This document shows positions 4,755 to 61,016 of a stretch of 64,000 nt of DNA, in pieces (within the stretch, counting starts at the first letter, position 1; each line of letters opens with the position of its first letter). Under the pieces are notes generated by a model. That model searched no databases, had not been told where the DNA came from, and worked only from the letters and a program-made list of their open reading frames with translations. This stretch comes from a bacterium (GTDB lineage: Bacteria; Patescibacteriota; Minisyncoccia; JAHIHE01; JAGLIN01): positions 5,675 to 69,674 of the forward strand of contig DAOWDU010000011.1 of assembly GCA_030638825.1 (NCBI GenBank), given 5' to 3'. The translations under genes and the position numbers were made by a program.

Positions 4755-5609
4755 TTATCGTTTATTCAATCTCTTCAAAATCTCCAAATCTTCCTCAGCT
4801 TTCCCGCCTGGTGTTTCCAAAATAAAATCCAAATTCTTTAATCTTGGCTCATTAATAATCATCTCAAATCCTTCTATTCCAATTTTGCCTTTACCAATAT
4901 TTTCATGTCGATCAATATGCGAATTGAAATCAGATTTTGAATCGTTGCAGTGAATAAGTTTTAATCTTTCCAGTCCAATTATTTTATCAAAATCATCAAA
5001 GGTTTTCTGGACCGCTTTTTTATCGCGTAAATCATAACCTGAAGCGAAAGCGTGAGCGGTGTCAAAGCACACACCTAATTTAATATTTTTGTCATCCTGA
5101 GCTTGTCGAGGGACTTCCTTAATAAAATAGGCGATTTCTTCAAAACTGTCGCCCATAATATTTCCAGAGCCAGCGGTGATTTCCAGCAGTAGGGAACAGG
5201 CATGCCTGTTCCCTACTGCTACTAACCCTTTAATTAATTTCTCCCGCGCTTCTTTTTCGCCTAGTTCTTTCGCGCTTCCTAGGTGAGTAACAACCGCTTT
5301 TGCGCCGAGTAAATCCGCTGTTTCTAGTTCTTTCTTAATTGCTGAAATTGAACCGTAATAAATTCTATTATTCGCCGAAGCGAGATTTATATAATATGGC
5401 GTATGAATGTAATAATTTTCTAAATTATATTTCTGGCAATTTTTTTTAAAATTATTTATAGCGCTCTCTGTAATTTCTTTCGCTTTTCCTCCTTGCGGAG
5501 ATCTGGAAAACATCTGAAAACACTCACAGCCAATCTCGTGAGCTCTTTCGGGAGTTTTTTCAATTTCCCCCGCGATTGAAATGTGCGCGCCAAAGTTCAT
5601 TAGTGACAA
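4755..5609 (-). CDS. nfo: Endonuclease IV (AP endonuclease family 2)
   Basis: Conserved Nfo blocks are present (HAPY-like IHTPYYINLAS, TAGSG, CFDTAHAFASGYD, LIHCNDS). The gene also contains two in-frame repeat insertions, described in the findings. Confidence 0.85.
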   Translation of the reverse strand: MSLMNFGAHISIAGEIEKTPERAHEIGCECFQMFSRSPQGGKAKEITESAINNFKKNCQKYNLENYYIHTPYYINLASANNRIYYGSISAIKKELETADLLGAKAVVTHLGSAKELGEKEAREKLIKGLVAVGNRHACSLLLEITAGSGNIMGDSFEEIAYFIKEVPRQAQDDKNIKLGVCFDTAHAFASGYDLRDKKAVQKTFDDFDKIIGLERLKLIHCNDSKSDFNSHIDRHENIGKGKIGIEGFEMIINEPRLKNLDFILETPGGKAEEDLEILKRLNKR

Positions 5610-6139: not shown

Positions 6140-6194
6140 AAAAAGTTTGGTTAGCTGATCTAAAATTAGCTAAATTTCCCATCCTTCGACAAGC

Positions 6195-7190
6195 TCAGGA
6201 TGACAGTGTTGTTGTATTTTTTAAAATCATCTCTCTAATTCTTCTTACGCTATTTTCTACATCTTCCCCTTCCATTTCAAACCCAGAGGCAAGTTTATGC
6301 CCTCCTCCGCCTAAGCTCCTTGCTATTTCAGACACATCAATTCCTTTATAATCCTCGCTTCTTAAACTTCCTTTTATTTTTTTGTTCTCGCTCTCTGTTA
6401 GAAGCAGGGAAAATTTTGCATCGCTAACTGTATTAATAATACTAATCAAGCCAGACGCGTCTTCTTCTTTCGCGCCGCATTCTTCTATATCATTTTTACT
6501 AATATAAGATATTGCCATTTTTGTATTTTTATCTGTTTGAATTCTACTAAGCGCTTTCCCCCACAGTTTTATCGCGGGTACATTTTTCCCATTGAAAATA
6601 TTTTTCGCGATTTTATCTATGCGGGATCCTTTTCTCATCAGTTCTGCCGCAGTTTCAAGAGATTGCGGATCTGTGTTACTGTGTTGAAAGCCTCCTGTGT
6701 CTGTAAAAATTCCTGTGAGCAGACAATCAGAAATGTTCTTTGTGATTTTTATTCTCATTTCTTTTAGAAGATTGTAAATCAAAATTGCTGCAGAAGAAGC
6801 TTTATCGTCTATGATTAATATACAATCTTGTTCTGTTTTATTTTTTGGATGATGGTCAATGATTAATAAATTATTATGAGAAGAGGCAATCTCTCTTATG
6901 TCGTCTACGCCAGTTCTTGAAAAAAAAGCGCAGTCCAATAATACAACAAGATCGTAATGCTTTGGATCTATTTGATTTTTAATCTTTGAGACGCCAGGCA
7001 AGAATTTAAACACTTCGGGAATTTCGCTTTTAGAAAAACATTCTACATTTTTATTATCCAAACAACTAAGCGCGTGAGCCAATCCTAAAACAGATCCTAC
7101 CGCATCTCCGTCTGGATTTTTGTGGGTGAGGATTAAAATATTATCGCTGGATTTTATTAAATTTATTGCTTGTTGCATGGTATTAATCAT
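6195..7190 (-). CDS. DHH-family phosphoesterase (NrnA-like oligoribonuclease / pAp phosphatase)
   Basis: DHH motifs DGDAVGS and DHHPKN, and the DHHA1 GGGGH motif. The last codons and the stop come from a GTCAT-type hairpin element (see finding). Confidence 0.8.
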   Translation of the reverse strand: MINTMQQAINLIKSSDNILILTHKNPDGDAVGSVLGLAHALSCLDNKNVECFSKSEIPEVFKFLPGVSKIKNQIDPKHYDLVVLLDCAFFSRTGVDDIREIASSHNNLLIIDHHPKNKTEQDCILIIDDKASSAAILIYNLLKEMRIKITKNISDCLLTGIFTDTGGFQHSNTDPQSLETAAELMRKGSRIDKIAKNIFNGKNVPAIKLWGKALSRIQTDKNTKMAISYISKNDIEECGAKEEDASGLISIINTVSDAKFSLLLTESENKKIKGSLRSEDYKGIDVSEIARSLGGGGHKLASGFEMEGEDVENSVRRIREMILKNTTTLSS

Positions 7191-7205: not shown

Positions 7206-7343
7206 GTCATTGCGAGGAGGCTGAATGAACGAAGTGAGAGAAAAGCCGACGAAGCAATCCCGTAACTATGCAAGATGAACTTAATCACGGGATTGCTTCG
7301 TCGCCTTCTCTTCGCTACGCTCAATCGGGCTTCTCGCAATGAC
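7206..7343. mobile_element. 138-bp MITE-like palindromic element with 11-bp terminal inverted repeats (gtcattgcgag ... ctcgcaatgac)
   Basis: Terminal inverted repeats at 7206-7216 and 7333-7343. Internal inverted repeat gacgaagcaatcccg (7248-7262) / cgggattgcttcgtc (7288-7302). The whole element is an imperfect palindrome. It is intergenic, between the rbfA stop and the nrnA-like start. Confidence 0.6.
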
Positions 7344-7693: not shown

Positions 7694-9493
7694 TTAATTT
7701 ATTTTTCTAATTTTACTTTCTTCTTTATACGCATTAAGCACATCTCCTTCTTCAATAATCACGCTTCCTTCATAAGTTATCCCAGCGTTGTTTCCTGATT
7801 TTACTTCTTTTACTATTTTTTTATTATATTGAATTTCTTTGGCTGTGCCGCGGCCTATTTTTTCGCCATCTCTCAGTATTTCAAGCAAAGATGCTTTTTC
7901 TATTTTTCCGTTTTCAACTTTTGCGCCGACAATCATCTCAACCACTTTTGCCGATTTCTTTCCAGATTTAAAAATCGCGATTACTTTCAAAACTCCCAAA
8001 TCTGTTCGGATAATTTCCGGCTCAAGAATATCAGAAAGATCTTTTTTAATGTCGCTGATTAATTCATAAATAACTTTATACATTTTAATGTCAACTTTTT
8101 CTTTTTCGGAAAACTTTTTTACTGATAAGTCTATATTAACATTAAATCCGATTATTTTTGCTCCAGAAGAGTGAGCCATTTTAATGTCGGTTTCTGTTAT
8201 ATTTCCCACACCCATTTTTAAGATTTGAATAGCGACTTCGTCTGATTTTATTGATTCCAAAATTTGGATTATAGCTTCCAATGATCCTTTCACATCCGCT
8301 TTAAGAATAATATTAAATTTTTTCATCTGATGTGATTTGACTAGCGCTTTTATTCTGGCGGTGCTGAGTATTTTGCCCTCGGAAGATCTTTCGTTTTCAA
8401 TGTTGTTAAATTTAGCCGCTCTTTTTTCAGCCGTTAAGCGATTTGTTTCACCAATTAAAAAGGATCCTACTTTTGGAACATCATTTAATCCTATAATTGT
8501 GACGGGCATAGACGGGATTGCTTTGTTGATTTTTTTGCCAGTAAAATCTTCCATCCTTTTAATTCTTCCCCAGTCAGATCCCACGCTCACATAATCGCTG
8601 TTTAGCAAAGTTCCGTTTTGGATTAAGACTGTCGCTACTGGTCCAATTTTGGGGTCAAGGTGCGATTCAATCACAAATCCTTCCGCGGGGCAATTTGGAT
8701 TGGCTTTTATTTCTTCCATTTCTGAGGATAGAATTATCATTTCTAATAACGCATCAATTCCCTCTCCCGTTTTTGCGGAAACATTTACGCAAACCGTTTT
8801 TCCTCCCCAGTCTTCTGGAGTAAGATCAATTTCAGAAAGTTCTTTTTTAACTTTCTCAATATTTTTTTCTGGTTTATCAGTTTTATTAATCGCGACCAAA
8901 ATTGGAACACCAGCTTCTTTTGCAAATTGCACCGCTTCTTTTGTTTGCGGTTTAACGCCGTCGTCGGCAGCGATGACGATAACCGCTAAATCTGTAATAT
9001 ACGCTCCTCGTTCTCTCATAGAATGAAATGCTTCATGTCCTGGTGTGTCAAGAAAGGTAATCGTTTCTCCTTTTTTCTTTACTTGATAAGCGCTAAAATG
9101 CTGAGTAATTCCACCAGATTCTCCAGCGGTTACATTCGTTTTTAAAATTTTATCAAGTAAGGTAGTTTTTCCGTGGTCAACATGTCCCATTACAACAACA
9201 ACTGGAGGTCTTTTTTTTGCTCCTGGACCAAGATTTTTTTTAATCTGCTGTTTTCTTTTTTGCGCTTCTGACTTTACTTTTTTGAGTTCAAATCCAAAAT
9301 CATCCGCAACAATTTCGGCGGTCTCAAAATCTAAAACCTCGTTAATATTGGCGAATATCTTATTCTTAATAAGTTCCGCAATAAGATCGGTCGTTTTGAT
9401 TTCCATTTTCTCCGCTAACTCTTTGACAGTTATATTTTCTGGAACTTCAAGAACAGTCTTTTCTTCTTTTTTGTTTTTACTTTCTTCTGGCAT
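7694..9493 (-). CDS. infB: Translation initiation factor IF-2
   Basis: GTPase G1 motif VVVVMGHVDHGKTTLLD and DTPGHEAF, with IF-2 C-terminal beta-barrel domains. Confidence 0.95.
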   Translation of the reverse strand: MPEESKNKKEEKTVLEVPENITVKELAEKMEIKTTDLIAELIKNKIFANINEVLDFETAEIVADDFGFELKKVKSEAQKRKQQIKKNLGPGAKKRPPVVVVMGHVDHGKTTLLDKILKTNVTAGESGGITQHFSAYQVKKKGETITFLDTPGHEAFHSMRERGAYITDLAVIVIAADDGVKPQTKEAVQFAKEAGVPILVAINKTDKPEKNIEKVKKELSEIDLTPEDWGGKTVCVNVSAKTGEGIDALLEMIILSSEMEEIKANPNCPAEGFVIESHLDPKIGPVATVLIQNGTLLNSDYVSVGSDWGRIKRMEDFTGKKINKAIPSMPVTIIGLNDVPKVGSFLIGETNRLTAEKRAAKFNNIENERSSEGKILSTARIKALVKSHQMKKFNIILKADVKGSLEAIIQILESIKSDEVAIQILKMGVGNITETDIKMAHSSGAKIIGFNVNIDLSVKKFSEKEKVDIKMYKVIYELISDIKKDLSDILEPEIIRTDLGVLKVIAIFKSGKKSAKVVEMIVGAKVENGKIEKASLLEILRDGEKIGRGTAKEIQYNKKIVKEVKSGNNAGITYEGSVIIEEGDVLNAYKEESKIRKIN

Positions 9494-10350: not shown

Positions 10351-10514
10351 GAGCGTCATGTAAACATTAAAACATATAAACATTTAAACAAGTTGCGTAA
10401 TAAAGAATTTAATTCAAGAATAAAGTTTAGTGGTTTCTTTTTTATTTTTTACTGAAATCTTTATTCTAAAATTTGTTTATTTGTTTATATGTTTTAATGT
10501 TTATATGAACCCTG

Positions 10515-10599
10515 TGCCGAGGGCGGGACTTGAACCCGCACGCCCAAATATGAGCACAGGCCCTCAACCTGCCGTGTATACCAATTCCACCACCCCGGC
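10515..10599 (-). tRNA. tRNA-Leu (anticodon GAG), long variable arm
   Basis: The reverse complement gccggggtggtggaattggtatacacggcaggttgagggcctgtgctcatatttgggcgtgcgggttcaagtcccgccctcggca folds with the anticodon GAG in a 7-nt loop and has a long extra arm. Confidence 0.8.
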
Positions 10600-10640
10600 T
10601 AGTTAACTTATAACAGATGACTTATAACGAAATAACAATT

Positions 10641-10666
10641 GTCATTCCCGCGGAGGCGGGAATCCA
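10641..10666. repeat. GTCATTCCCGCGGAGGCGGGAATCCA hairpin repeat (family F, copy 1)
   Basis: 8-bp stem attcccgc / gcgggaat. Copy 2 at 41865-41890 carries compensating stem changes. Confidence 0.7.
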
Positions 10667-10669
10667 TTA

Positions 10670-11236: not shown

Positions 11237-11361
11237 ATAATTTGGTTACTATTAATCTTTTAATTTAACTATTTTATACTACTTTATAAGAGAGGATTAG
11301 TCAAGGCGAGCGCATATAAATATATAAACATATAAACATTTAAACAAAGTTTATATCATTT

Positions 11362-14398: not shown

Positions 14399-15244
14399 TT
14401 AATTTATTAAATTCAAATACCACTTAATAATTTTCTCTCCCCAAAACAATCCCACAAAGGTTCCGATTATTAAAAATGGACCGAAGGGAATCATACTGCC
14501 CATTTTTTTCCTGCCAGCTAAAATTAGGAAAATGCCGATTACTGATCCGAGAATAAATGCTAAAAATAAAGCGATTAAAATTACTGGCCAGCCCAAAATC
14601 AGTCCCATTAAAAATGCCAATTTAACATCTCCTCCGCCCATTCCTTTGCCTTTGGTAATGATAATTATTGTGTAGAAAAATCCGCCTGCGAGAATAGCTG
14701 CGATAAACGGATTAAAAATAGTTGTTAAATTTCCAATTTCCAATTTCCAATTTCCAATCAATTCCCAATGATTAAATTTCAAAATTTCAAATAATTTATA
14801 AATGAAGGTTATAATAATCGCAGGATAAATTATTTTGTCTGGAATAATATAGTGTTTTAGGTCATAGACAAAAATAACAATAAAAGTGGAACTGACATAA
14901 AACAGAAATAATAGATAAAGAAATTGAAAATTGAAAATTGAAAATTCACTGAAAATTGAAAATTGAAAATTGAAAATTAGCACAAATAATATCCCTGTCA
15001 TAATTTCTACCAACGGATACTGAATAGAAATTTTATTGCTACAGTATCGGCACTTGCCTTTTAAAAATATAAAGCTAAAAACTGGAATTAAGTCTTGCCA
15101 ATTTAAGATGTGTTTGCAGGATAAGCATCTCGATCTGTCATTTACTATTTTTTCTCCGTTTTCTAATCTATAAATGACCACATTCAAAAAACTGCCGATA
15201 ATCAGGCCGAAGATGAAAATAATTATATTGTATAAAATAAGCAT
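14399..15244 (-). CDS. pilD: Prepilin peptidase (A24 family), carrying two internal heptamer tandem-repeat arrays
   Basis: Zn-binding cysteines CLSC...CRYC, peptidase motif GGGDVKL, and multi-TM topology. Confidence 0.9.
   Translation of the reverse strand: MLILYNIIIFIFGLIIGSFLNVVIYRLENGEKIVNDRSRCLSCKHILNWQDLIPVFSFIFLKGKCRYCSNKISIQYPLVEIMTGILFVLIFNFQFSIFSEFSIFNFQFLYLLFLFYVSSTFIVIFVYDLKHYIIPDKIIYPAIIITFIYKLFEILKFNHWELIGNWKLEIGNLTTIFNPFIAAILAGGFFYTIIIITKGKGMGGGDVKLAFLMGLILGWPVILIALFLAFILGSVIGIFLILAGRKKMGSMIPFGPFLIIGTFVGLFWGEKIIKWYLNLIN
14728..14769. repeat. Heptamer tandem repeat (ttccaat) x4-5 inside pilD
   Basis: Four perfect copies at 14731-14758 plus a degenerate copy. The unit length is not a multiple of 3. 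Confidence 0.85.
14920..14978. repeat. Heptamer tandem repeat (gaaaatt) x7-8 inside pilD, interrupted by cact
   Basis: Three copies at 14926-14946, then cact, then four copies at 14951-14978. Confidence 0.85.
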
Positions 15245-15278
15245 TTGGATTAAACCAGTTTTTAGTTATTCTTAAGTT

Positions 15279-15689
15279 TTATGGAAAAGTGCATCCGTTT
15301 TGAGTGCAATCGGCAGTGGCAGTGGTTGTGCCATCTGACGCTTTTGCTTCGTTAGTTGCGGTTATAGTATAATTGAATGTCCCGGCTCCACTTGTGCCAC
15401 AATTTTGATCTGGAGCTGCTGATAGACTTGTAAAAGTGATGTCATGATCATAAGTGGTTCCAGTAAAATCTTCTACAACGATATCTCGATCATCGCAAAT
15501 GCTTACTATTCCTGGCACTGTTCTGCTTGCTTCTGCTTTAAACGCCGCATCTTTAGCTTTTTGCCTTGTGTTGTTTAAAGTTGTCATCACGATACTTGCT
15601 AAAATACCAATAATTGCGATAACAACCAAAAGTTCAATTAGGGTAAAGCCCTTTGAGTTTCTCGGGGTGAGCTCTTGTTTAAATTCCAT
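15279..15689 (-). CDS. Type IV pilin / pseudopilin (N-terminal methylation motif)
   Basis: [22 protein letters not shown] prepilin leader plus hydrophobic helix. C-terminal Cys pair CTQNGC. Confidence 0.85.
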
Positions 15690-15762
15690 AAAGATATTTT
15701 AAAAAATTAAAGCACTATAAAATTATTATTATCCTGTAACTATTATAACAGATTATGAAAAT

Positions 15763-15796
15763 AAAAACAGATAGAATTTTTCTATCTGTTTTTTTG
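15763..15796. terminator. Bidirectional intrinsic terminator hairpin after pilin gene 2
   Basis: aaaaacagatagaa ttttt ctatctgttttttt. Confidence 0.55.
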
Positions 15797-15818
15797 AATT
15801 TTATAGATCTACAAAATT

Positions 15819-16211
15819 CTAATTAAAAGTGCATCCATTTTGAGTGCAGGAAGCAACAAGAGTAACTGCAGGTGTAGCTGAATTCAATGCGCCATTATCC
15901 GCAGTTACAGTATAACTAAACGTTCCAACTCCACTTGTGCCACAATCTTGAGTTATTGTGGCAAAAACAGTAGCATGAATATAAGTGGAACCAGTAAAAT
16001 CAGTTACAACGATAGGATCATCATCACAAATACTAACTAATCCTGGTACTGTTCCAGCTGCTTCTGCTTTAAATGCTACATTTTTAGCTTTTTGTCTCGC
16101 GCTGTTTAAACTTACCATTACAACTGAAGCTAAAATACCGATAATTGCGATAACAACCAATAACTCAATCAAAGTAAAACCTTTCTTATTTATTTTTAAC
16201 ATTCGTTTCAC
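15819..16211 (-). CDS. Type IV pilin paralog
   Basis: [24 protein letters not shown]-terminus. C-terminal CTQNGCTF, as in the neighbouring pilin. Confidence 0.85.
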
Positions 16212-16225
16212 CTCCTTTCCTAATT

Positions 16226-16510
16226 TTATTTAGTTACAATTTTTAAAAGTTCTTTAAAATGCGAAAGAGCGTTTGGCAATTGCTTGTAAATTCTTTCAGC
16301 ATCATCTTCATTATAAGTATGAACAGTTTCATTTCTCATATCCACAAACTCAATCCAGTCCTCAGTGTAATTTATAATGCTCTGCCGATAAGCTTCACGG
16401 AAACATTCTTTGGGAGAAGCGCAAACAACTCCTTTTTCTTCTTCAAGAAGAGCTTTCAACATTTTCCATGAAATATCCAAAGTAAATTCAAACCGCTGAA
16501 TCTCTGACAA
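16226..16510 (-). CDS. HEPN-domain protein of the nucleotidyltransferase substrate-binding (HI0074) family. The N-terminal part appears displaced into another frame (16511-16595).
   Basis: [19 protein letters not shown] and the R-x4-H HEPN motif RNETVH. An ATG at 16593-16595 overlaps the MNT stop (ATGA coupling) but reads a different frame. Confidence 0.65.
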
Positions 16511-16591
16511 TATCTGTTTCGGGCACAGCCAAAACTTCTTCTAAACGCCTTACCGCTTTTTCAAATTGCTTGATTGTAATTTCAGATTTTG

Positions 16592-16897
16592 TCATAGCGC
16601 TTCAATCTTTTGTTTAGCCAGATTATAAAAATCAGGAGATACTTTTTTAAAATCAACAACATCAATTTTGTAAAGAATTGGCAAATTTTCAAAATCCTCT
16701 TTAATTTTTGCCATCACTTGCCAAGAAATTTCTTTCTCTCCCTCAATTCCAAGATCAATATCAGATCGCTCATTTCCCTTTCCCATAACCCTTGAGCCGA
16801 AGAAGAAAATTTTGTTCTGGTCAAGATTTAAATAGTTGCCAATAATATCTTTGGTTTCCTTTTTAAATTTATCCAAAGAATAAAATTCAAGTCTCAT
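16592..16897 (-). CDS. Minimal nucleotidyltransferase (MNT), partner of the downstream HEPN protein
   Basis: Pol-beta-type NTase motif GSRVMGKGNERSDIDLGIEG. Confidence 0.8.
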   Translation of the reverse strand: MRLEFYSLDKFKKETKDIIGNYLNLDQNKIFFFGSRVMGKGNERSDIDLGIEGEKEISWQVMAKIKEDFENLPILYKIDVVDFKKVSPDFYNLAKQKIEAL

Positions 16898-16914
16898 ATG
16901 CTAATTTTATACAA

Positions 16915-16950
16915 CGATTATAACATTGCTTACTTCTTTGCGCAATGAAA
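16915..16950 (-). promoter_or_regulatory. Candidate sigma70 promoter (TTGCGC - 17 - TGTTATAAT) for the MNT-HEPN operon
   Basis: On the minus strand: cattgcgcaaagaagtaagcaatgttataat, about 25 nt upstream of the MNT start. Confidence 0.4.
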
Positions 16951-17041
16951 AGCATCAATACGAGAACATTAAAACATTCAAACAAAATTTTGAAATCGCA
17001 GTATGTTTAAATGTTAATATGTTTATATGTTAACATGACGC

Positions 17042-18118
17042 TTATCTTCTCATCAACATTTTCAAATCGCTCACATTAGTTGAATAAGTCTTGGCGTCTT
17101 CTAGCGTTATCTTATTTCTTTTCACGAGATCTGCGAGTGAGTTATTTAAAGAGACCATTCCTTCATCAGCGCTAGTGTTAATGACAAGATTAAGCTGGTG
17201 AGTTTTGTTTTCCCTAATCAAATTCTTGACCGCGGAGTTAGAGGTCATTATTTCCACGGCTGGAATTCTGCCTCCGTCTATATTTGGAATAAGCCGTTGC
17301 GATAAAATTCCGAGAAGATTTCCAGCTAATTGAGATCTAATCTGATTTTGCTGGCTGGCGGGAAAACTGTCAATAATTCTATCTATAGTTTGAGCAGTGC
17401 TGTTAGTGTGCAGAGTAGCAAATACAAGGTGCCCAGTTTCTGCCGCGGTAATGGCAGTGCTCATTGTTTCCCAATCTCTCATTTCTCCAACCAAGATAAT
17501 ATCAGCATCTTCTCTGAAAATAGAACGAAGAGCGTTGCTAAACGATTTTGTGTCAATGCCAACTTCTCTCTGATTGATGATACATCTATTTTGAGTGTAG
17601 ACATGTTCAATCGGATCCTCAATTGTCACTATATGCGCGTTTCGCTGACTGTTTATTCTGTCAATGAGCGCCGCTAAAGTGGTTGATTTTCCATGTCCAG
17701 AAGGACCAACGACGAGCACAAAACCTTGTGATGGTTTTGTGAAATCATAAACCATTTCTGGAATGCCAAGTTGTTCAAGGTTTCTTATTTTGGAGGGAAT
17801 AAGCCGAAAAGAAGCGCTCATAAAACCTCTTTGGAAAAAGACATTTATTCTAAATCTCGTTTTTTTTTCAAACTCATACGAAATATCAAGTTCCTTGTTT
17901 TCTATAAATTTTTCTTTTTGCTCGCTTGTCAAAAATGCGCTAACAAGCTCCTCTACTTTTCTTGGAGTTAGGAGCTCTTTATTAGTCAGCGGGACTAATC
18001 TTCCGTCAATTCTAAGCGTTGGATATCGTCCAACTGATAAATGCAAATCGGACGCATTTTCTTGCGTCGTGCTAATTAGCAAATCATCTAACTCTTGTTT
18101 AGCGTTGATACTAGTCAT
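17042..18118 (-). CDS. pilT: Type IV pilus retraction ATPase PilT
   Basis: Walker A VVGPSGHGKSTTLAA, a PIEHVY-like block and the His box. 358 aa. Confidence 0.9.
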   Translation of the reverse strand: MTSINAKQELDDLLISTTQENASDLHLSVGRYPTLRIDGRLVPLTNKELLTPRKVEELVSAFLTSEQKEKFIENKELDISYEFEKKTRFRINVFFQRGFMSASFRLIPSKIRNLEQLGIPEMVYDFTKPSQGFVLVVGPSGHGKSTTLAALIDRINSQRNAHIVTIEDPIEHVYTQNRCIINQREVGIDTKSFSNALRSIFREDADIILVGEMRDWETMSTAITAAETGHLVFATLHTNSTAQTIDRIIDSFPASQQNQIRSQLAGNLLGILSQRLIPNIDGGRIPAVEIMTSNSAVKNLIRENKTHQLNLVINTSADEGMVSLNNSLADLVKRNKITLEDAKTYSTNVSDLKMLMRR

Positions 18119-18136
18119 ATTGATTCATATTAATGT

Positions 18137-18523
18137 TTACATGCTTTTCTTTAATACTTCTCTGATTTTTTCAATAACTTCTGACGGTGTAAAATGAGCC
18201 TTGATTATATAACTGTCAGCCCCTAAATCAAATCCTTTTTCTACATTTTCTTTCTGCCCCAAATTTGTTAAAAGCACGACAGGGATTCCTTTTAGCTCTA
18301 TGTTTTTTTTAATTATTTTCAAAACATCAAAGCCGTCCATTTTTGGCATAACAACATCCAAAAGAATTATATCTGGTTTTTGTTTTTCTAGCATCTTAAT
18401 GCCTATTATTCCATCCTTTGCAGTCGCAACTTCAAAGTTTTCTGATTCTAGTTTAATCTTATACATGTCAGATATGTAAGAATCATCTTCTATTATTAAA
18501 ACCGATGTTTTGTCTTTGATCAT
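18137..18523 (-). CDS. Single-domain response regulator (CheY-like receiver)
   Basis: Receiver residues DD...D (IIEDDSY, LLDVVMP), T/S and K. Confidence 0.85.
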   Translation of the reverse strand: MIKDKTSVLIIEDDSYISDMYKIKLESENFEVATAKDGIIGIKMLEKQKPDIILLDVVMPKMDGFDVLKIIKKNIELKGIPVVLLTNLGQKENVEKGFDLGADSYIIKAHFTPSEVIEKIREVLKKSM

Positions 18524-18524
18524 A

Positions 18525-18599
18525 TTGTTAAATTGTTAAATTGTTAAATTGTTAAATTGTTATGCGTGGCATAGCAATATTTTTATGCCATGCATAACA
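18525..18599. repeat. Octamer tandem repeat (attgttaa) x about 5, then a 15-bp inverted repeat (gttatgcgtggcata / tatgccatgcataac). It lies directly upstream of the response-regulator ATG.
   Basis: The tandem array spans 18525-18563, and the inverted repeat spans 18559-18573 / 18585-18599. The 21-mer atgcataacaatttaacaat recurs at 45370-45395. Confidence 0.7.
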
Positions 18600-18623
18600 A
18601 TTTAACAATGTAGCAATTTAATT

Positions 18624-20384
18624 TTATTCTTCCGTAACTCTCAAGACTTCCTCTATGGTTGTTAGTCCAGATAGAACTTTCATTATTCCATCTTGCTTCA
18701 TTGTCACCATTCCCTGTCTTTCCGCTTCTTTTGATATTTCAGCGTCTGAAATATTAGAAGACATTATGGATTCCAATTCGGGAGTCATTAAAAGAACTTC
18801 ATAAACTCCTATTCTTCCAGAAAATCCAGACTGTTTACATTCTTTGCATCCTTCTCCGTGAAAGAGTTTGAGACCTTTTTTTATATTAAAATCACTTTTC
18901 TGATCGTCGGGAACATTTTCAAGCTCTTTTCTGATAATTTTTTCCATAGAAAGTGAAGCTGGCATTTCTTTTTTGCAGTGGGAGCATATTTTTTTAACTA
19001 AGCGTTGCGCTATTGCTATATTTAAGGAGGACGATATTAAAAACGGTTCAACTCCCATATCAATCAAACGCGGGATAACGCCAATCGCGTTATTAGTGTG
19101 CAGCGTTGATAAAACCAAGTGTCCTGTTAGGGCGGCATGGGTCGCTAATTCGGCTGTTTCTTTGTCTCTTATTTCTCCAACCATTATAATATCTGGATCT
19201 TGCCGCAATATTGATCTTAATCCCGAAGAGAAGGTGTATCCTATTTCTGATCGTATTTGACTTTGATTTATTCCAACCATAAAATATTCTACAGGATCCT
19301 CCAAGGTCACAACATTTACTCCTTCCTTATTTAGTATTTTCATCATCGCGTAGAGAGTTGTTGATTTTCCGGAGCCTGTTGGTCCCGTCACAAGAACAAT
19401 TCCGAATGGCTTGCTTATATTGTCGTTGATTATTCGCAATCCATTTTTCCAAATGCCTAAGTTTTCCAGGGTGCTAATATTTGAAGATGTGTCTAAGATT
19501 CTCATTACCACTTTTTCTCCGTTGACGGTTGGAAAAGTAGAAACACGCAAATCAACACTTTTGCCTAAATTGCCCTCCTTAGAAAGAGTGAAACGAAATC
19601 TTCCATCTTGCGGTTTTCTGGTTTCATCTATTTTTAAATTGGCAAGTATTTTTATTCGAGAAGTGATCGCGGGAGTAATTTTTTTGGGGAGAACTAAGCT
19701 GTTGTGTAAAGTTCCGTCTAATCTATATCTAACTCTCAGTTCATTTTCATTTGGCTCAATGTGGATGTCGCTTGCTCTTCCTTCTACAGCGTGAGTAAGG
19801 ACAATATTTACAATCTTGCTTACGGGAGCTTCTCCAGTAATTCTTTCTATTTTTCTGCTTCCTGTTTCCTTTTTTAGATTTTGCTCCTTGCTAATAATTT
19901 GCTGGTCAACATTTTTTAGAACATTTTCTAATTCATCGTCTACTTTTTTATACTGTTTTACAGCGTCATAAAAATCGCTCCTAGACACCAAATATATTTT
20001 TGTGTTAGTCTTGTGCCTTATGGAAATAAATTTTAAGGCATCTAACGCTTCTGTATTATTCGGATCAAGCATAGCGACATTAACTGTTCCGTCATTTTCT
20101 CCAAATGGTATAAATTTATAAAACAACGCTGCTTTTTCTGGAATCTTTTTTAAAATTTCACTATCAATAATTTCATCTTTCAGTTTGATATAAGGGACCC
20201 CCAAAAAAGCTGCTTTAACTTTCGTCAGCTCTCTTTCGTCAGCCGTTTTTTTATCAATCAAAATGTCAAAAATATCCAAATTATCCTTCTTTGATTTTTC
20301 AAGCGCGTCATCAATTGTATGCTTATCAACTACATTGCTGGAAAGCAAGTAGTCGTAAGCTCTCTCAAGGTTTTTACTATTCAT
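18624..20384 (-). CDS. pilB: Type IV pilus assembly ATPase PilB (GspE family)
   Basis: N-terminal GSPII_E_N domain, Walker A LVTGPTGSGKSTTLYA, and a C-terminal Zn motif CSHC...CKEC. Confidence 0.9.
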   Translation of the reverse strand: MNSKNLERAYDYLLSSNVVDKHTIDDALEKSKKDNLDIFDILIDKKTADERELTKVKAAFLGVPYIKLKDEIIDSEILKKIPEKAALFYKFIPFGENDGTVNVAMLDPNNTEALDALKFISIRHKTNTKIYLVSRSDFYDAVKQYKKVDDELENVLKNVDQQIISKEQNLKKETGSRKIERITGEAPVSKIVNIVLTHAVEGRASDIHIEPNENELRVRYRLDGTLHNSLVLPKKITPAITSRIKILANLKIDETRKPQDGRFRFTLSKEGNLGKSVDLRVSTFPTVNGEKVVMRILDTSSNISTLENLGIWKNGLRIINDNISKPFGIVLVTGPTGSGKSTTLYAMMKILNKEGVNVVTLEDPVEYFMVGINQSQIRSEIGYTFSSGLRSILRQDPDIIMVGEIRDKETAELATHAALTGHLVLSTLHTNNAIGVIPRLIDMGVEPFLISSSLNIAIAQRLVKKICSHCKKEMPASLSMEKIIRKELENVPDDQKSDFNIKKGLKLFHGEGCKECKQSGFSGRIGVYEVLLMTPELESIMSSNISDAEISKEAERQGMVTMKQDGIMKVLSGLTTIEEVLRVTEE

Positions 20385-20402
20385 GTGTCATACTAAAATA
20401 TT

Positions 20403-21506
20403 TTATTCTTCAAATCCTCTTAAAGCCAAGCCAACGGCGACGGAAAAACTTGTTGATATCTGGTTTAGCTTTTTGGACAATACTTTGTCGTAGGCAATAT
20501 TTTTCCAAGGGCTGGCGATTTCTACTGCAATAGAAAGTTCTTTGGAGAAATAACTAATTAATCCAGGCAGGCTCGCTGAGCTTCCTGATATAATTATTTT
20601 GTTGATATTTTTCTTATTTCTATTGAAATAAGAATCGTTTACTTTTTTAATTTCCGATGTAAGTATATTGACAATCGGCAGCGCGATTTCAGAGACCTTT
20701 TTTTGCGGGCCATCAAAAGTTAAACCGACATCTCTTTTTAAGGCTTCCGCTCTGTTAAAATCAATGTTAAATCCATGGCTTATCATTTTAGTTATCTCTT
20801 CTCCTCCAGCTCCTGGCGTGCTATGACTTTCTAAAACAGAGCCGTTTTTGACAACTATTATGCTCGTTGTTTTGTTTCCAATGTCAACAATCATAGAAGC
20901 TTCCTTATTGTTTCCAACCAACGATCTTGCTAACGAAAATGATTCAGTTTCCAAAGCAACTAACCTCAAGTCTGTTTGTTTGATAATGTCAGTATATTTC
21001 TTCGTTATTTCTCTTGGAATAGCAACGAGCAACACAGTTATTTTTTTATTTTGTTTTAAGCTGGTGTCTTGCTTGTCAAGATTTTCTTCTGCGGTTTCTT
21101 TGTTTACAATGCTCCAATCAAAAACAACTTCGTCTAATGGCAATGGTATATACTGTCTGGCTTCATAATTAACAGCTTCGCTAATCTCATTTTCCGGAAT
21201 GTCCGGCAATTCCATAATGGATGAAAAAGCAGAGGATATTGGGATTGAAATGGTTGTCTCTTTGGCTGTTATCCCCGCTTCGTTGATGATTTTTAGCAAG
21301 TCGTTTAATATTTCAGTATCTGACATTTTTACATCTGCCGCTCTTCTTCCGTTGCTTAAAATTTCCATATATTCCTTCGTTTCAGTGTAAGCGTAATTTT
21401 CCAATTTTATTTCTTTGCCATTTGATCCAAGCTGGACCATTCTTATTCCCGTGGTTCCTATATCAATTCCCAAAGAACTGCAGGGTTTCTTTTTAAATAA
21501 ATCCAT
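20403..21506 (-). CDS. pilM: Type IV pilus assembly protein PilM (actin-like ATPase)
   Basis: LGIDIGTTGIRMVQL N-terminal phosphate-1 motif, and length. Confidence 0.8.
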   Translation of the reverse strand: MDLFKKKPCSSLGIDIGTTGIRMVQLGSNGKEIKLENYAYTETKEYMEILSNGRRAADVKMSDTEILNDLLKIINEAGITAKETTISIPISSAFSSIMELPDIPENEISEAVNYEARQYIPLPLDEVVFDWSIVNKETAEENLDKQDTSLKQNKKITVLLVAIPREITKKYTDIIKQTDLRLVALETESFSLARSLVGNNKEASMIVDIGNKTTSIIVVKNGSVLESHSTPGAGGEEITKMISHGFNIDFNRAEALKRDVGLTFDGPQKKVSEIALPIVNILTSEIKKVNDSYFNRNKKNINKIIISGSSASLPGLISYFSKELSIAVEIASPWKNIAYDKVLSKKLNQISTSFSVAVGLALRGFEE

Positions 21507-21532: not shown

Positions 21533-22078
21533 TTATTCTTCGTTTCTCACCTTAACTTTCATTGAAGCGTTCTTTTCTATTTTCGGAAGTTTAACCGTAA
21601 GAATGCCGTTTTTGATTGTCGCTTCAACTCCTTCTGTTTTAATATCGCTTGGCAAAATAATTGAACGCGAAAAATTCCCCCAAAAACATTCTTGATAATA
21701 ATAATCGTCAGCTACGACATTGTCAGGATTTTCTCTCTTTCCTTTGATAGTCACCATATCGCTCGTAACGGAAATATCTAAGTTTTCAGGTCGGACGCCG
21801 CCAATAATTGATTTTACAACAATGAGTTCTTTTGTTTTGTAAACATCTACTGTCAACTGGCCTTCTTCGTTAATATCATCTTCTTTTCCTGAAAGCCATT
21901 CCTTGTCAATTTTTTTGTTTTCAGAATTATTCTCGTCAGTGTCTCCGTTGTCCGCTTCATTCTCGTTTGTTGTTTCTGTTTCTTTTTCTTCATCAGAATC
22001 AGAACTAACAATTCTGTTTAAAAATGATTTTTTTTGTTTTGTCATATTATTCATATTAACATTTAAATATATAAACAT
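21533..22078 (-). CDS. Hsp20/alpha-crystallin small heat-shock protein with an acidic N-terminal extension
   Basis: Alpha-crystallin domain: LTVDVYKTKELIVVKSIIGGVRPENLDISV ... GILTVKLPK. Confidence 0.75.
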   Translation of the reverse strand: MFIYLNVNMNNMTKQKKSFLNRIVSSDSDEEKETETTNENEADNGDTDENNSENKKIDKEWLSGKEDDINEEGQLTVDVYKTKELIVVKSIIGGVRPENLDISVTSDMVTIKGKRENPDNVVADDYYYQECFWGNFSRSIILPSDIKTEGVEATIKNGILTVKLPKIEKNASMKVKVRNEE

Positions 22079-22164
22079 TTAAACACAAATTTTAAAATAT
22101 AAAAAGCGACTGCTTGTTTATATGTTTACATGTTTACACGATTACATTATACCATTTTTAAAAA

Positions 22165-25100
22165 TTACAACAAGGACTTTATTTTTTCTTTCAGTTTTTT
22201 TATTTTTTTTTCGCTTTCCATAAATTTTTCTCTTTCTTTTTCAACAATTTCCCGCGGAGCATTGCCGACAAAATCATCATTGCCAAGTTTTGTTTTTATC
22301 TGGAAAATATATTTTTCTATATTTTCTATTTTTTTTTCTAAATTCTTTTTTTCTTTTTCTTTGTCAATTATTCCCTCTAAATAAATTTCAATATCGCCAA
22401 CAACTAAATAAACCGCGTCTTTGATTTTATCGTCCTTTTCTTTTATTTCTAATTTATCAATTCCAGTTCTGAGATTTTTGATTAAATGCGCTTGTGATTT
22501 GATAAATTCTTTTTTATTTCCAGCGTAAATTACAGCTTCAATTTTTTTACCTGGCTCAACCTTATATTCCGCGCGCGCGTTGCGAATGGCTTTAATAATA
22601 TTTTGAATTATTTCAAAATCGCGGGCTGTTGTGATTGTAGGGAACGGGCATGCCTGTTCCCTACAATCACGGTCAGCCCACTTTTCCACCATCAGTAAAT
22701 TTTCACTGTCTAAATTCTTCCAAATTTCTTCTGTCACAAACGGAATAAAAGGGTGAAATAAAATTAAAACTTGTTTTAAAATATAATTTAAAATCTCATT
22801 TTTATTTTTTTCAATTTTAGAAATTTCAATATACCAGTCAGCGAAATCGTTCCAGGTAAATTCTTTTATTTTTTCGCCAGCTTGCGAAAATTTATAATTA
22901 TTCAAATCATCTGTGACTTCTTTAGTTAAATTGTTTAGATTATTTAAGATCCATTTATCTGCTAATGTGGCATCAGAAGCTGGGCTTCCAATTGGAAGCC
23001 CAGCTTCTTTAGTATTATCAATATTCATAATAATATACCGTGAAACATTCCACAACTTATTCACAAAATTCCGATACCCTTCAACTTTTTCTTCATACAT
23101 CTTAATGTCATTTCCTGGACTGGATCCGATAATCATACTCAATCTCAAAGCGTCCGTTCCGTATTTCTCGATCATCTCGATCGGATCAATCCCATTTCCA
23201 AGAGACTTGCTCATTTTCTTTCCCTGCTTATCTCGTACCATTCCATGCAAATAAACATTTTCAAACGGGACTTCGCCAAGCGTATAAGTCGTCATCAAAA
23301 TCATTCTTGCCACCCAAAAAAACAAAATATCATAACCCGTTTCCATCACGCTTGTTGGATGAAACTTTTTCAAATCTGGACTATTCGCAACCCAATCTTC
23401 AAAAGTTTTATATTTCTCGTGATCCTGATTTAATAAAGTTGAAAATGTCCAAAGACCTGAGGAGAACCAGGTGTCTAGAGTGTCGGTGTCCTGTGTCCAG
23501 TTTTTTCCTTCTGGTGGATTAGTCCCAATATATATTTCTTGATTTTTATATTTCTTACCTTTCGGTATCATAGTATATACTATGGAACTATTATCAAATT
23601 TATTATTTAATTCATATTTCCATCCCGCTTGCCACTCTTTTGTTTTTCTCCAATCTTCATTAATCGCTTGCTCCCAAGTTCTATTTTTTAAAATTACATC
23701 TAGCGCTAACTGTGGAGCTTTGTGCGCAACAATAGCAATTTTTTTACCTTGATATTTATCTATTAAATCATTAAGAAAATCCCTGATTCTTTTTTCAACA
23801 TCTTTATAGCTCTCGCCCTTTGGAAATGGTTTGTCTATTACATTTTTTTCTATCACCAAAATTTCAGACGCACCAGCTTGTGTTAAATCTCCATAATCAC
23901 ACTCACGCAATCTTTCATCCTGAATGATTTTTACACCTCTATCACTAAACGTTAGGCTTGCAGAATCAACTGCTCGTTTCAAATCTGAACAAAATACAAT
24001 ATCAAATTTCTCATTTTCAATTGTTTTCTTTAAATCTTTTGACTGCTGAATTCCTAATTTTGATAATTTTACATCATAATGACCAGACGCTTTATTCTTC
24101 TCATTATCAATCGTCGTCCCATGAACAAAATAAGTAATATCAATTCCTGATTCCTGATTCCTGATTCCTGATTCATTTTTATACCAAACCGGAATCCGAT
24201 GCCCAAACCATAACTGACGGGAAATACACCAATCATGCAAATTTTCCATCCAATTATGATATGTTTTTTCAAATCTTTCAGGAATGATTTCAATTTTCTT
24301 GTCATTTTTTTCATCAGCTTTATTCACCACTTCCAAAGCAATTTCCTTCAAGGACTTATTTTGAAAATATTTATTTCCTCCAATTGTAATTTTCTTGTCA
24401 ACGGCGACAAACCATTGTTTTGATGGCAAAGGTTCAATCGGGGTATCACAGCGGTAGCAAATGCTTAAACTTTGATCTACTTCTTCAACTTTTTCAATTA
24501 AATTATTTTTCTCAAAATACTGGACTATTTTTTCTCGCGCTTCTAAAACTGTTAGTCCTTCATAATCTTTTCCTGCGTTCTCATTCATCTTCCCGTCTTC
24601 GCCAATAATTTTTATTTTCTCCAAATCATTTTTCTCTGCCATTTCCCAGTCAGTCATACTGTGCGCGGGAGTTACTCCTAATGCCCCAGTTCCAAACTTT
24701 ATTTCAACTTCTCTATCTGAAATAATTTTAATTTTATGTTTGCCATTTCCTAAATTTATTTCAAAAACTTTGCCAATATACTTTTTATATCTCTCATCTT
24801 TTGGATTAACAGCAACCGCTGTATCGCCTAACTTTGTTTCTGGTCTTGTTGTCGCGATTGTGATTGGAAAGTCTTTGTCATATTTAAAATAATACAGTTT
24901 CCCTTTTTGCTCTTCGTGTTCAACTTCATCATCCGCTAAAGTTGATTCGCATCTTGGGCACCAGTTGACAATTCTGTCTCCTCTATATATTAATTTATCA
25001 TTGAACATTTTTGTAAATACTTCCCTCACTGCGCGTGATAATCCATCATCAAGTGTGTATCTTTCCCTTGACCAATCGCAAGAAGAACCCATTTTTCTGG

Positions 25101-29422: not shown

Positions 29423-29490
29423 TGTGGAGTGCGTTGTCAGTATTGGTGTGTTGTTGTTTAGTGGAGCTCAAAGAATTGAAATAAGTTCTT

Positions 29491-29545
29491 AATTTCAAAA
29501 TCCAAATTATGTCAAATTATTCCAAATCAAATCCAAATTTAAAAA
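29491..29545. repeat. Left inverted repeat (ccaaat-rich) flanking the four-helix-bundle gene
   Basis: aatttcaaaatccaaattatgtcaaattattccaaatcaaatccaaattt. It is the reverse-complement partner of 29927-29995 and a homolog of 30751-30800. Confidence 0.7.
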
Positions 29546-29922: not shown

Positions 29923-29926
29923 GTAA

Positions 29927-29995
29927 TTTTAGCATTTGATATTTGAATTTGATTTGGAATAATTTGAGCTTTGGAATAATTTGGAATTTATAAAC
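29927..29995. repeat. Right inverted repeat (atttgg-rich) flanking the four-helix-bundle gene
   Basis: ttttagcatttgatatttgaatttgatttggaataatttgagctttggaataatttggaattt, about 90% identical to 30806-30875. Confidence 0.7.
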
Positions 29996-41725: not shown

Positions 41726-41864
41726 TTTTTTATACCTTTCTTTAATTACTGATCTGCAAACTCTAGACTAATATTATTTCTTAAAACAATATTTTAATCT
41801 AACTGTTTATAGATCAGTAAAATTTTAATTAGTTTATTATTTAAAGTTGGTTATTGGTTTATTT

Positions 41865-41890
41865 GTCATTCCCGTGAAGACGGGAATCCA
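41865..41890. repeat. GTCATTCCCGTGAAGACGGGAATCCA hairpin repeat (family F, copy 2)
   Basis: Stem attcccgt / acgggaat. Compared with copy 1 (attcccgc / gcgggaat) the stem change is compensated. Confidence 0.7.
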
Positions 41891-41991
41891 GTTTGTCTCA
41901 ATAAACAATATCTTTCGTAAAAATTTATTAAGTATAAAAAACTGAAACAGTCTATCTGTTTGGTGATTAGGGAGTTGATTAGTTAAATTAT

Positions 41992-44383: not shown

Positions 44384-44623
44384 AGATTTTTAAAAATTAA
44401 AATATTTTTATTTCTTCTCTTCCACCTCATACTCCACATCTTCTAAATATTCTTTCTTCTTCCCTAATTTCTTTCTACCCACAACTTTATCATAAAGATA
44501 AGAAGCAACCGCCAAAAAAGCCGCTTTTTTTATTTTTCTTTTTTTGAGATTTATTTTTTCTTTTAGTTTTTTAAACATAAAAATATATTGCTAAATTTCT
44601 TGGAGTACAAATTAGCTAAATTT

Positions 44624-44693
44624 GTCATAGTGAGCTTGTCGAACTATGATAAATTTAGCGAGTCTACCCATCCTTCGACAAGCTCAGGATGAC
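44624..44693. repeat. Pair of GTCAT-type hairpin elements in opposite orientation (gtcatagtgagcttgtcgaactatgat ... catccttcgacaagctcaggatgac)
   Basis: Same family as 5091-5116 and 6180-6204. The 27-mer cccatccttcgacaagctcaggatgac is shared with 6178-6204. Confidence 0.7.
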
Positions 44694-60011: not shown

Positions 60012-61016
60012 TTACTTTTTACTGTGAAACTTCTTGTGAATATTTTTCAAATGCTTGTCTGTGATGTGCGTGTAAATTTGAGTTGTCGTGATACTGGAAT
60101 GGCCGAGCATTGACTGGACGCTTCTAATGTCAGCGCCGTTCATTAGTAAATCTGTCGCAAAACTGTGCCGCAAAGTATGGGGCGTCACTTTTTTTACGAT
60201 GCCCGCTTTGACGGCATATTTTTCTACTATTCTTTGAATAGTTCTTACTGTCAGTCGTAAAGATTGATTTGCTTTTGCTTTATTTTTCTTACTGTTTTTT
60301 TTGCTTTTATTTTCATTATTGCAATAGCCACCGCCTTTTTTTCTAAAATTTATAAATAACGCAGGGTCAATATCTTTCCTTTTTTTAAGATAATCTATTA
60401 TGGCATCTTTTGCTGAGTCGGAAATAAAAACAAGACGGATTTTTCCTCCCTTTCCCCTTATAGAAAACTCGCCGCTTTTGAGATTTATGTTTTCCCTGTT
60501 TAAATTAGCAAGTTCCGAGACGCGAAGTCCAGTGGAAAATAGCAATTCTAAAATCGCTTTATCGCGCAGGCGATGGAAATATTGAAGGCGACATTCCGGA
60601 ATGTCGCCTTCAATATTTCCATCGCCTGTTTTCACAGATTCTAATAATCTTTTTATCTCATCCGCTTCTAAAAATTCTACTTCTCGCTCTTGCGTTTTTC
60701 CAAGCTCCACTTTTTCACTTGCCAATGTTTCAATATCTTGTTTTGCTAAATATTTCAAAAAACCGCGCAAGGCGATTATATAATAATCCTGTGTTGCTTT
60801 TTTTAAATTTTTTTCTTTACGATCTTTATATCTATTGAGATATAACCTGAATTTCTTTACCAATTCACCTGTAATATCCTCTGGATTTCTGATCATTGCC
60901 CAATCTAAAAACCGATTTAAATAATGATCGTAGTTTCTAATTGTCAGCTGTGATCTATTTTTCTCAATCTCCAAATATTCAAGAAATTCAATTTTTAATT
61001 CTTTTATTTTTTCCAT
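60012..61016 (-). CDS. Tyrosine recombinase (XerC/XerD / phage-integrase family) with a Lys/Asn-rich insertion
   Basis: The C-terminal catalytic block HTLRHSFATDLLMNGADIRSVQSMLGHSSITTTQIYTH (R...HxxR...Y). XerD-like N-terminal core-binding domain. Confidence 0.8.
   Translation of the reverse strand: MEKIKELKIEFLEYLEIEKNRSQLTIRNYDHYLNRFLDWAMIRNPEDITGELVKKFRLYLNRYKDRKEKNLKKATQDYYIIALRGFLKYLAKQDIETLASEKVELGKTQEREVEFLEADEIKRLLESVKTGDGNIEGDIPECRLQYFHRLRDKAILELLFSTGLRVSELANLNRENINLKSGEFSIRGKGGKIRLVFISDSAKDAIIDYLKKRKDIDPALFINFRKKGGGYCNNENKSKKNSKKNKAKANQSLRLTVRTIQRIVEKYAVKAGIVKKVTPHTLRHSFATDLLMNGADIRSVQSMLGHSSITTTQIYTHITDKHLKNIHKKFHSKK

Follow-up and report, generated by a model that had tools for sequence, protein, structure and literature searches.

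Hairpin repeats with (T/C)GTCAT heads in a Patescibacteria contig: relation to CGTC-tagged REP elements and to small GIY-YIG genes

Short hairpin repeats occur between genes, at the end of one gene and inside another in a 64-kb stretch of contig DAOWDU010000011.1 from a bacterium of the Patescibacteriota (hereafter the window). They fall into three sub-families with a common (T/C)GTCAT head, and we interpret them as repetitive extragenic palindromic (REP) hairpins of the CGTC/TGTC-tagged superfamily, to which the dRS3/NTS repeats of Neisseria, RPE-4 and RPE-6 of Rickettsia and the Ssn-related motifs also belong; we give the full explanation a probability of about 0.65. Judged by its sequence, sub-family 2 is an orthodox member of the superfamily, a near-exact NTS, and sub-families 1 and 3 are long-loop variants. 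The explanation builds on the established identity of the repeats, their covarying stems, insertion polymorphism between relatives and the physical linkage that ties the sub-family 1 hairpin to GIY-YIG genes, a Parcubacteria-group genome included. The novelty implied by an initial annotation of this DNA does not hold: the superfamily, its donation of stop codons and its in-frame insertion within repair genes were described in 2013 (PMC3733652), and a nuclease partner in 2025 (PMC11893778). New here are the occurrence in Patescibacteria and a long-loop class linked to GIY-YIG genes, which the published pattern misses.

Two superfamilies of prokaryotic REPs, one with a GTAG tag and one with a CGTC tag, have been distinguished (Di Nocera, De Gregorio & Rocco 2013, PMC3733652). 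CGTC REPs have a tag that is often TGTC, a stem of 8-9 bp beginning with AT, a loop of 4-5 nt and the tail CCA. They adjoin the 3' ends of open reading frames (ORFs), form inverted dimers, can supply stop codons and lie in frame within genes, notably those for DNA repair and tRNA synthetases; no dedicated transposase was found for them in that survey. CGTC-1 is the same repeat as Neisseria dRS3 and Rickettsia RPE-6, and RPE-4 is likewise a CGTC REP (PMC3733652). The dRS3 repeat has since been extended to the 28-nt NTS, CGTCATTCCCGCGMAVGCGGGAATCYRG, and degenerate Ssn-related motifs (SRM) have been defined by the pattern HGTCWYN(0-2)YYVSBRHN(0-5)WNVSBRGN(0-2)RNCYNB (Chenal et al. 2025, PMC11893778). 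SsnA, a 94-aa single-domain GIY-YIG protein, binds and cuts NTS/SRM solely as single-stranded DNA (ssDNA), and the genes are often arranged as NTS-ssnA-NTS; Ssn nucleases are assigned to CDD family cd10448 (PMC11893778). Patescibacteria, the group of the present host, are not covered by the 2013 survey and go unmentioned in the NTS/SsnA paper.

The window is AT-rich (34% G+C), and the closest relatives of its proteins are found in Patescibacteria/Paceibacteria. It contains eight monomer copies of the repeats at six sites, two of which hold inverted dimers. Seven of the eight monomer heads are TGTCAT and one, at 44694, is CGTCAT, so the copies carry the unpaired 5' tag of the superfamily (CGTC, often TGTC). 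As in the superfamily, they are interspersed and multi-copy, include inverted dimers and lie mostly 3' of ORFs, four of the five intergenic sites being located 0-24 nt past a stop codon. Window shuffles give an expectation of zero matches to the consensus of either sub-family 1 or sub-family 2, which rules out a chance origin of the copies. All copies listed in the initial annotation were recovered where it places them, the inverted pair at 44624-44693 included, and its grouping of them into one related superfamily is borne out.

Sub-family 1 has the layout GTCAT-CC-TGAGCTTGTCGAA-GG-ATG (search consensus GTCATCCTGAGCTTGTCGARGGATG), and has a 6-bp stem, an 11-nt loop and the tail GG. Exact matches to the consensus are found at 6180-6204(-) and 44669-44693(-). 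The copy at 44624-44649(+) differs by two compensated pairs, its stem being CATAGT/ACTATG vs CATCCT/AGGATG, and the copy at 5091-5115(+) has two mismatches and has lost its folding. Nearest-neighbour calculations give lone hairpins of this sub-family little stability (-3.7 kcal/mol, z about -0.9); the case for pairing rests on covariation, not energy.

Sub-family 2, TGTCATTCCCGYGRAGRCGGGAATCCA (search form GTCATTCCCGYGRAGRCGGGAATCCA), is matched at 10641-10666(+) and 41865-41890(+). The stem ATTCCCGC/GCGGGAAT begins with AT and encloses the loop GGAG or GAAG; CGTC-1 has the same 8-bp stem, 4-nt loop and CCA tail. The two copies differ from each other by one compensated pair, C-G to T-A, as first read from the sequence. 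Each is off the NTS at 3 of 28 positions, and two of the three differences in the 41865 copy form a compensatory pair. The SRM pattern has one exact fit in the window, at 41864-41891 (0.03 expected by chance), and 10640-10667 misses it by one loop base.

Sub-family 3 is represented by the 138-bp inverted dimer at 7206-7343, which has a long structured loop and folds with -47.4 kcal/mol (z = -11.7). The terminal motif TGTCAT...ATGACA, at first ascribed to all of these elements, survives in part: such ends hold for inverted dimers and for the full-length hairpins of other genomes, but not for the single hairpins described here, the pattern TGTCAT-N12-40-ATGACA having no match in the window. The repeats resemble CGTC REPs (PMC3733652) in the (C/T)GTC head, the stem that starts with AT, the short tail and the inverted dimers, and also in copies located just 3' of ORFs, stop donation and in-frame presence in DNA-repair and tRNA-synthetase genes. 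Sub-families 1 and 3 depart from CGTC REPs by a stem of 5-6 Watson-Crick pairs and either a conserved loop of 11-13 nt or a structured one of ~40 nt.

Orthologous loci provide clean before-and-after views of a hairpin of 25-40 nt reshaping a C-terminus or a protein loop. The loci compared (L118-L124, ~100 kb) display the IF2-rbfA-DHH-orf179-nfo synteny and were reached via Nfo homologs; L119/L120 represent the closest relative, with Nfo 81% identical. Read together, the alignments describe four separate gains: at the 3' end of the DHH gene, in an Nfo surface loop, in the rbfA-DHH spacer and at rplS.

The DHH/DHHA1 phosphoesterase gene (NrnA-like, 331 aa, 6195..7190, minus strand) has PDB matches to DHH phosphodiesterases and NrnA, and the Pfam domains DHH and DHHA1 were found on the identical gene in locus L118. 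When it is aligned to the ortholog in L120, a gap of 41 nt falls cleanly on the former stop codon. The corresponding insertion (6168..6208, minus strand) reads cacTGTCATCCTGAGCTTGTCGAAGGATGggaaatttagct and consists of the hairpin 6180-6204, GTCATCCTGAGCTTGTCGAAGGATG, with 4 nt on its 5' side and the 12-nt tail GGAAATTTAGCT. Owing to the 41 extra bases the ORF now enters the insert and stops at the insert's TGA (6195-6197), which falls within the sub-family 1 repeat, and the end of the protein has changed from ...NTTK(L/F) to ...NTTTLSS. The initial annotation had derived the whole terminus ...NTTTLSS from the repeat. The TGA and (T)LSS, that is two to four residues, do originate there; 'NTT' is ancestral, as comparison of ortholog C-termini reveals. 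The closest ortholog (L119/L120) ends ...NTTKL-TAA with no hairpin and 41 bases fewer, and donation of the terminus by the repeat therefore withstood the ortholog check. The old terminal sequence (aattttag...) is still legible beyond the insertion, and no target-site duplication is evident in the L120 alignment. The 12-mer AAATTTAGCTAA (6166-6177), which follows the hairpin at this site, is also found at 44612-44623, and could belong to a longer element specific to the lineage.

Endonuclease IV (nfo, 284 aa, 4755..5609, minus strand), identified by PDB matches to Nfo at E = 4e-47 and by 3942 homologs, contains two repeat-derived in-frame segments, one from sub-family 1 and one from the GTAG-type 'family A', in agreement with the early reading of this gene. 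The decayed sub-family 1 copy (5091..5115, plus strand) occupies a position that we call loop 2. Its minus strand is read by nfo as V-P-R-Q-A-Q-D-D, residues 166-173, and the ORF runs in frame through the copy as PRQAQDDKN, just as first noted. Loop 2 is filled in the window, L120 and L121 (gaa aaa GTC CTT CGA CAA GCT CAG GAT GAC aaa) and empty in L123 (gaa aaa gaa att tct aaa gac agc ttg) and in most of 120 orthologs. Empty-loop orthologs thus exist; some others carry longer or doubled versions (RSFDKLRINSAQDDK; VMVSLSNH). The loop 2 copy is old, common to several species and decayed in its stem. In an AlphaFold (AF2) model of Nfo (pLDDT 92) the sub-family 1 residues close helix 156-169 and continue into loop 170-177, the block of lowest pLDDT, and those of family A occupy loop 133-138 and the start of strand 139-143. 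The two segments fall in the two lowest-confidence stretches of the model beyond its first 50 residues.

The family A palindrome GTAGGGAACAGGCATGCCTGTTCCCTAC (5187..5218), of the GTAG-tagged REP type (GTAGGG...CCCTAC), is one of three copies in the window and is translated in frame as VGNRHACSL in loop 1 of Nfo. This loop is a repeat hot spot: the same position is occupied by GTAGGGAACAGGCATGCCTGTTCCCTAC in the window, GTAGGGACAGGTCGCGACCTGTCCCTAC in L120 and CCCCCCTTATCAGGGGGG in L123, and IPPLKKG..GI-type inserts are found there in other orthologs. The differences between GTAGGGAACAGGCATGCCTGTTCCCTAC and GTAGGGACAGGTCGCGACCTGTCCCTAC are symmetric across both arms, which suggests replacement or arm-templated correction of the palindrome, not point mutation.

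In the rbfA-DHH spacer, 8 nt past the rbfA stop, lies the tail-to-tail dimer of sub-family 3 (7206..7343), with its GTCATTGCGAG heads pointing outward. The spacer measures 161 nt with the dimer in the window and 124 nt with a decayed copy in L119/L120; it is 25 nt long in L121 and 70 nt in L123, both without the element. Sub-family 3 is multi-copy in L119, where it forms ~160-nt tail-to-tail dimers with two monomer subtypes (6224-6384, 8487-8644, 14281). In another locus, L088, a sub-family 1 hairpin is nested in the loop of a GTCATTGCGAG...CGAAGCAATC hairpin, and the hairpins therefore insert into each other.

The sub-family 2 hairpin TGTCATTCCCGCGGAGGCGGGAATCCAT, of the CGTC-1/NTS type (10640..10667, plus strand; -8.9 kcal/mol, z = -3.7), lies 3 nt past the stop of rplS (L19). 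L120 has it at the same site, identical at 26 of 26 positions between diverged flanks, and the site is empty in L123. The second hairpin of this sub-family, TGTCATTCCCGTGAAGACGGGAATCCAG (41864..41891, plus strand), lies between genes, with the PNPase start 139 nt further downstream. The sub-family 1 tail-to-tail dimer at 44612..44693 (copies 44624-44649(+) and 44669-44693(-); -12.6 kcal/mol, z = -6.2) is located 24 nt past the stop of an NYN-domain gene. Its 44624 copy sits in an extended stem of 17 bp, TTAGCTAAATTT...AAATTTAGC, and is bracketed by the 12-mer AAATTTAGCTAA as an inverted pair. All three roles initially assigned to the superfamily, namely intergenic hairpins, a donor of a terminus and stop codon, and an in-frame insert, are thus represented in the window.

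The sub-family 1 hairpin is widespread. When one genome per species was scanned for GTCATNNTGAGCTTGTCGAANNATG, the long-loop hairpin (TGAGCYTGTCGAA) turned up in at least 117 stretches, and more than 15 phyla are represented. The matches listed include four lineages of the Candidate Phyla Radiation (CPR) as well as Bacteroidota, Ignavibacteria, Calditrichota, Eremiobacterota, Chloroflexota, Nitrospirota, Nitrospinota, Syntrophales, Alphaproteobacteria, Zixibacteria, Clostridia and Armatimonadota. Across 124 distinct copies the two free stem positions form Watson-Crick pairs in 88% and 98% of cases, each with three pair types, against 38% and 54% when stem partners are shuffled. Of 133 copies from other genomes, 86 have T and 26 have C directly ahead of GTCAT. 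Covariation of the stem around a fixed 13-nt loop implies that the stem is under selection, and sub-family 1 is what a hairpin recognised by a protein would be expected to look like.

A candidate for such a protein emerges from the neighbourhood of the hairpins. Unbiased clustering of the ORFs within 400 nt of the 133 copies yielded a single recurrent family, a small GIY-YIG protein (PF01541), and no transposase. The linked proteins are single-domain, ~100 aa long and similar to the UPF0213 structures 1zg2 and 1ywl. The arrangement was inspected by eye at six loci. The GIY-YIG gene lies between two inverted long-loop hairpins with their heads outward in Nitrospirota (L106), Brocadia (L127) and a marine contig (L135); a degraded unit of this kind is present in Chloroflexota (L038), and in Bacteroidales (L014) the gene is bracketed by NTS-like hairpins. 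Pairs of inverted loops spaced 300-330 nt from each other were found at no fewer than 120 metagenomic loci, and a GIY-YIG ORF lies between the loops in 96 of the 120 listed (80%). The repeat-nuclease-repeat order, combined with a ~100-aa single-domain GIY-YIG protein and seen with the sub-family 1 hairpin in many phyla, is the arrangement known for NTS and SsnA (PMC11893778).

One of these metagenomic loci belongs to the Patescibacteria. Contig MHIP01000010.1 of Candidatus Buchananbacteria (Parcubacteria group) carries TGTCATCCTGAGCTTGTCGAAGGATGACA, then, after 16 nt, the ATG of the 100-aa GIY-YIG protein P0269, then CATGGTTCGACAAGCTCACCATGACA, and the right hairpin encodes the last seven residues of P0269 and its stop. 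The closest homologs of P0269 (57-68% identity) belong to Nitrospirota, Bacteroidota and Peregrinibacteria, a pattern that points to horizontal spread. At E <= 0.001 the family comprises 22,126 cluster representatives (clusters of 50% identity). GIY-YIG proteins from these units end in ...STSSG*, ...STSSP* or ...RQAQDD... (P0121, P0134, P0241, P0269 and P0290; L106, L223/L267). These ends are encoded by the right-hand terminal hairpin; in several phyla, therefore, the repeat provides its own nuclease gene with a C-terminus and a stop.

Under the explanation that we favour, canonical copies of sub-families 1 and 3 in other genomes would be inverted terminal hairpins with GTCA heads outward around a ~100-aa GIY-YIG gene, and the window copies are singles and tail-to-tail dimers without the nuclease. 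The copies were gained at different times, some into AT-rich sequence just after stop codons or a few codons before them, others into tolerant surface loops of proteins. A copy landing in the last codons lets the ORF read on to the first stop of the repeat, as in the DHH gene; a copy of frame-keeping length in a loop persists and decays, as in Nfo. By analogy with SsnA, a GIY-YIG nuclease that another part of the genome encodes, or that was once present in it, would bind and cut the hairpins as ssDNA, and we infer that this putative activity underlies their spread or maintenance.

Several observations weigh against this explanation. Sub-families 1 and 3 fit neither the SRM pattern nor any of the four CGTC families, on account of loops of 11-13 nt or longer vs 4-5 nt. 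Heads at the 120 metagenomic loci are GTCA in only ~20, the majority reading CCGTTCG or CCGCTCA, so that heads vary more than loops do. The window contains no GIY-YIG gene by regular expression, hidden Markov model (HMM) or Pfam, the best window match of an ad hoc GIY-YIG HMM (E = 0.07) not being credible, and in this it differs from the NTS/SsnA arrangement. Paceibacteria at the distance of the Nfo relatives yielded no nuclease-bearing unit: the syntenic loci (~100 kb) contain no Ssn gene, none of the P0269 homologs is labelled Paceibacteria, and comparison of AT-rich metagenomic units with the window proteins gave no CPR assignment. No sub-family 3 copy stands next to a GIY-YIG gene among the loci examined. 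The genes for P0134, P0232 and P0269 are each found at one conserved locus, and to our knowledge there is no mechanism by which a GIY-YIG nuclease could copy hairpins to new sites.

A bolder version would treat the long-loop hairpin (stem-TGAGCYTGTCGAA-stem) and the ~100-aa GIY-YIG gene together as a self-contained horizontal element, its mobility or copy-spread driven by a site-specific ssDNA nuclease and not by a transposase, with the window hairpins as its active non-autonomous derivatives. We regard it as a tentative and rather doubtful proposition. The recent gain of 41 nt in the final codons of the DHH gene would speak for activity in this lineage. A multi-copy state of the nuclease genes, which would hint at transposition, was considered and rejected in view of the single conserved loci of P0134, P0232 and P0269, which give no sign that the full unit moves. 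If the proposition were true, a nuclease-driven element would be a mechanistically new kind, and the hairpin would define a new Ssn specificity class with a recognition loop conserved in more than 15 phyla.

The alternative that fares best holds that the repeats are host-selected elements acting at the RNA level, as stabilisers of mRNA 3' ends or as attenuators or terminators, with mobility secondary or absent. The location of four of the five intergenic sites 0-24 nt past a stop and the identity of the rplS-site copy in L120 despite diverged flanks both suit such a function, and transcription of REPs was favoured by the 2013 survey (PMC3733652). However, none of the copies is followed by a T-run or is found among the terminator-like sites of the window, on which grounds their identity as intrinsic (Rho-independent) terminators was rejected. 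Their orientation is mixed, the gene-proximal copies of sub-families 1 and 3 being sense and sub-family 2 and the nfo copy antisense, and some copies lie within coding sequence. At gathering thresholds Rfam recognises only RNase P and tRNAs in the window and no family for the repeats. An identical 13-nt loop in more than 15 phyla and the nuclease linkage argue for recognition of DNA by a protein, and SsnA does not act on RNA (PMC11893778). We consider the RNA-level account unlikely as the explanation of the repeats; it is compatible with the preferred one and does not exclude it.

A Y1 (HUH) transposase encoded elsewhere in the genome, either a RAYT or an IS200/IS605 TnpA, was the cognate enzyme suggested in the initial annotation, and REP/REPIN-like elements moved by it are a second alternative. 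The anatomy of the repeats is REP-like (short GC-rich hairpins, inverted dimers, proximity to gene 3' ends), and palindromes with the GTAG head typical of RAYT-associated REPs, those of family A, coexist with them in the window, where no RAYT was seen. In REP/REPIN-RAYT and IS200/IS605 systems, too, hairpins are recognised as ssDNA and repeats flank the gene of the acting enzyme. Those systems have a GTAG head and a Y1 HUH transposase, in contrast to the GTCAT head here and the GIY-YIG nuclease in other genomes. The GTAG head is absent from the GTCAT families, a Pfam scan of the 57 window ORFs returned no Y1 transposase, GIY-YIG or IS protein, and ORF clustering near the 133 copies delivered GIY-YIG instead. 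The 2013 survey, moreover, found no dedicated transposase for CGTC REPs (PMC3733652). Movement by a Y1 enzyme is accordingly very improbable. More improbable still is a role of the hairpins as sites at which a site-specific recombinase or IS110-type element attaches or inserts, or as uptake signals for natural transformation: dRS3 is the target of a phage recombinase in Neisseria filamentous prophages, NTS modulates Neisseria transformation (PMC11893778) and genes for type IV pili and for one tyrosine recombinase are present in the window, but no mobile element is inserted at any copy in the window or related loci, and the recombinase (60012..61016) adjoins none of them.

The CGTC-REP/Ssn-motif system is hereby placed in the CPR, with its small streamlined genomes, and its repeats insert into and persist in essential genes of these bacteria (nfo; related GTAG palindromes in valS). 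Palindromes kept in frame at structurally tolerant sites of housekeeping proteins are likewise found among the Rickettsia palindromic elements (RPE), reportedly the subject of work by Ogata et al. Unlike the present repeats, RPE-1 is much longer (about 100-150 bp), and the RPE host, an obligate intracellular alphaproteobacterium, contrasts with the free-living or epibiotic CPR bacterium of the present repeats. The long-loop hairpin would stand beside NTS as a second recognition class for ssDNA nucleases, enzymes of interest as tools. Insertion of the repeats also explains many spurious or oddly extended ORFs of metagenomes (…LSS*, …STSSG*, …RQAQDD…).

Further features of the window were observed alongside the repeats. 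Valyl-tRNA synthetase (1115 aa, 22165-25512, minus strand) contains in-frame GTAG-type palindromes at 22635-22666 (CREQACPFPT) and 25384-25415 (VGNRHTCSL), and a histidine-phosphatase domain (His_Phos_1) is inserted at its residues 464-601. The RNase P RNA match (47216-47684, minus strand) spans 469 nt vs a model of 367 positions, from which ~100 nt of extra sequence inserted in this RNA are deduced. AT-rich repeats with 8-nt periodicity (CATATAAA / TGTTTAxA) occupy many intergenic regions and often flank tRNA genes and gene starts (10357-10515, 11313-11355, 17001-17045, 22052-22156, 53391-53443, 57562-57606, 58150-58274 and 59863-59957), with a perfect tandem run at 58150-58224. The regions 14399-21506 and 28973-35391 hold a set of type IV pilus genes (for PilM, PilT-like and PilB-like ATPases, an A24 prepilin peptidase and two pseudopilins) and a separate cluster resembling a type IV secretion system (T4SS), with a PrgI-like protein, a VirB4/TraG-type P-loop ATPase and a T4SS pilin. 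A gene of the 23S_rRNA_IVP family is located at 29509-29922, and another is found beside the GIY-YIG unit in Buchananbacteria (L267).

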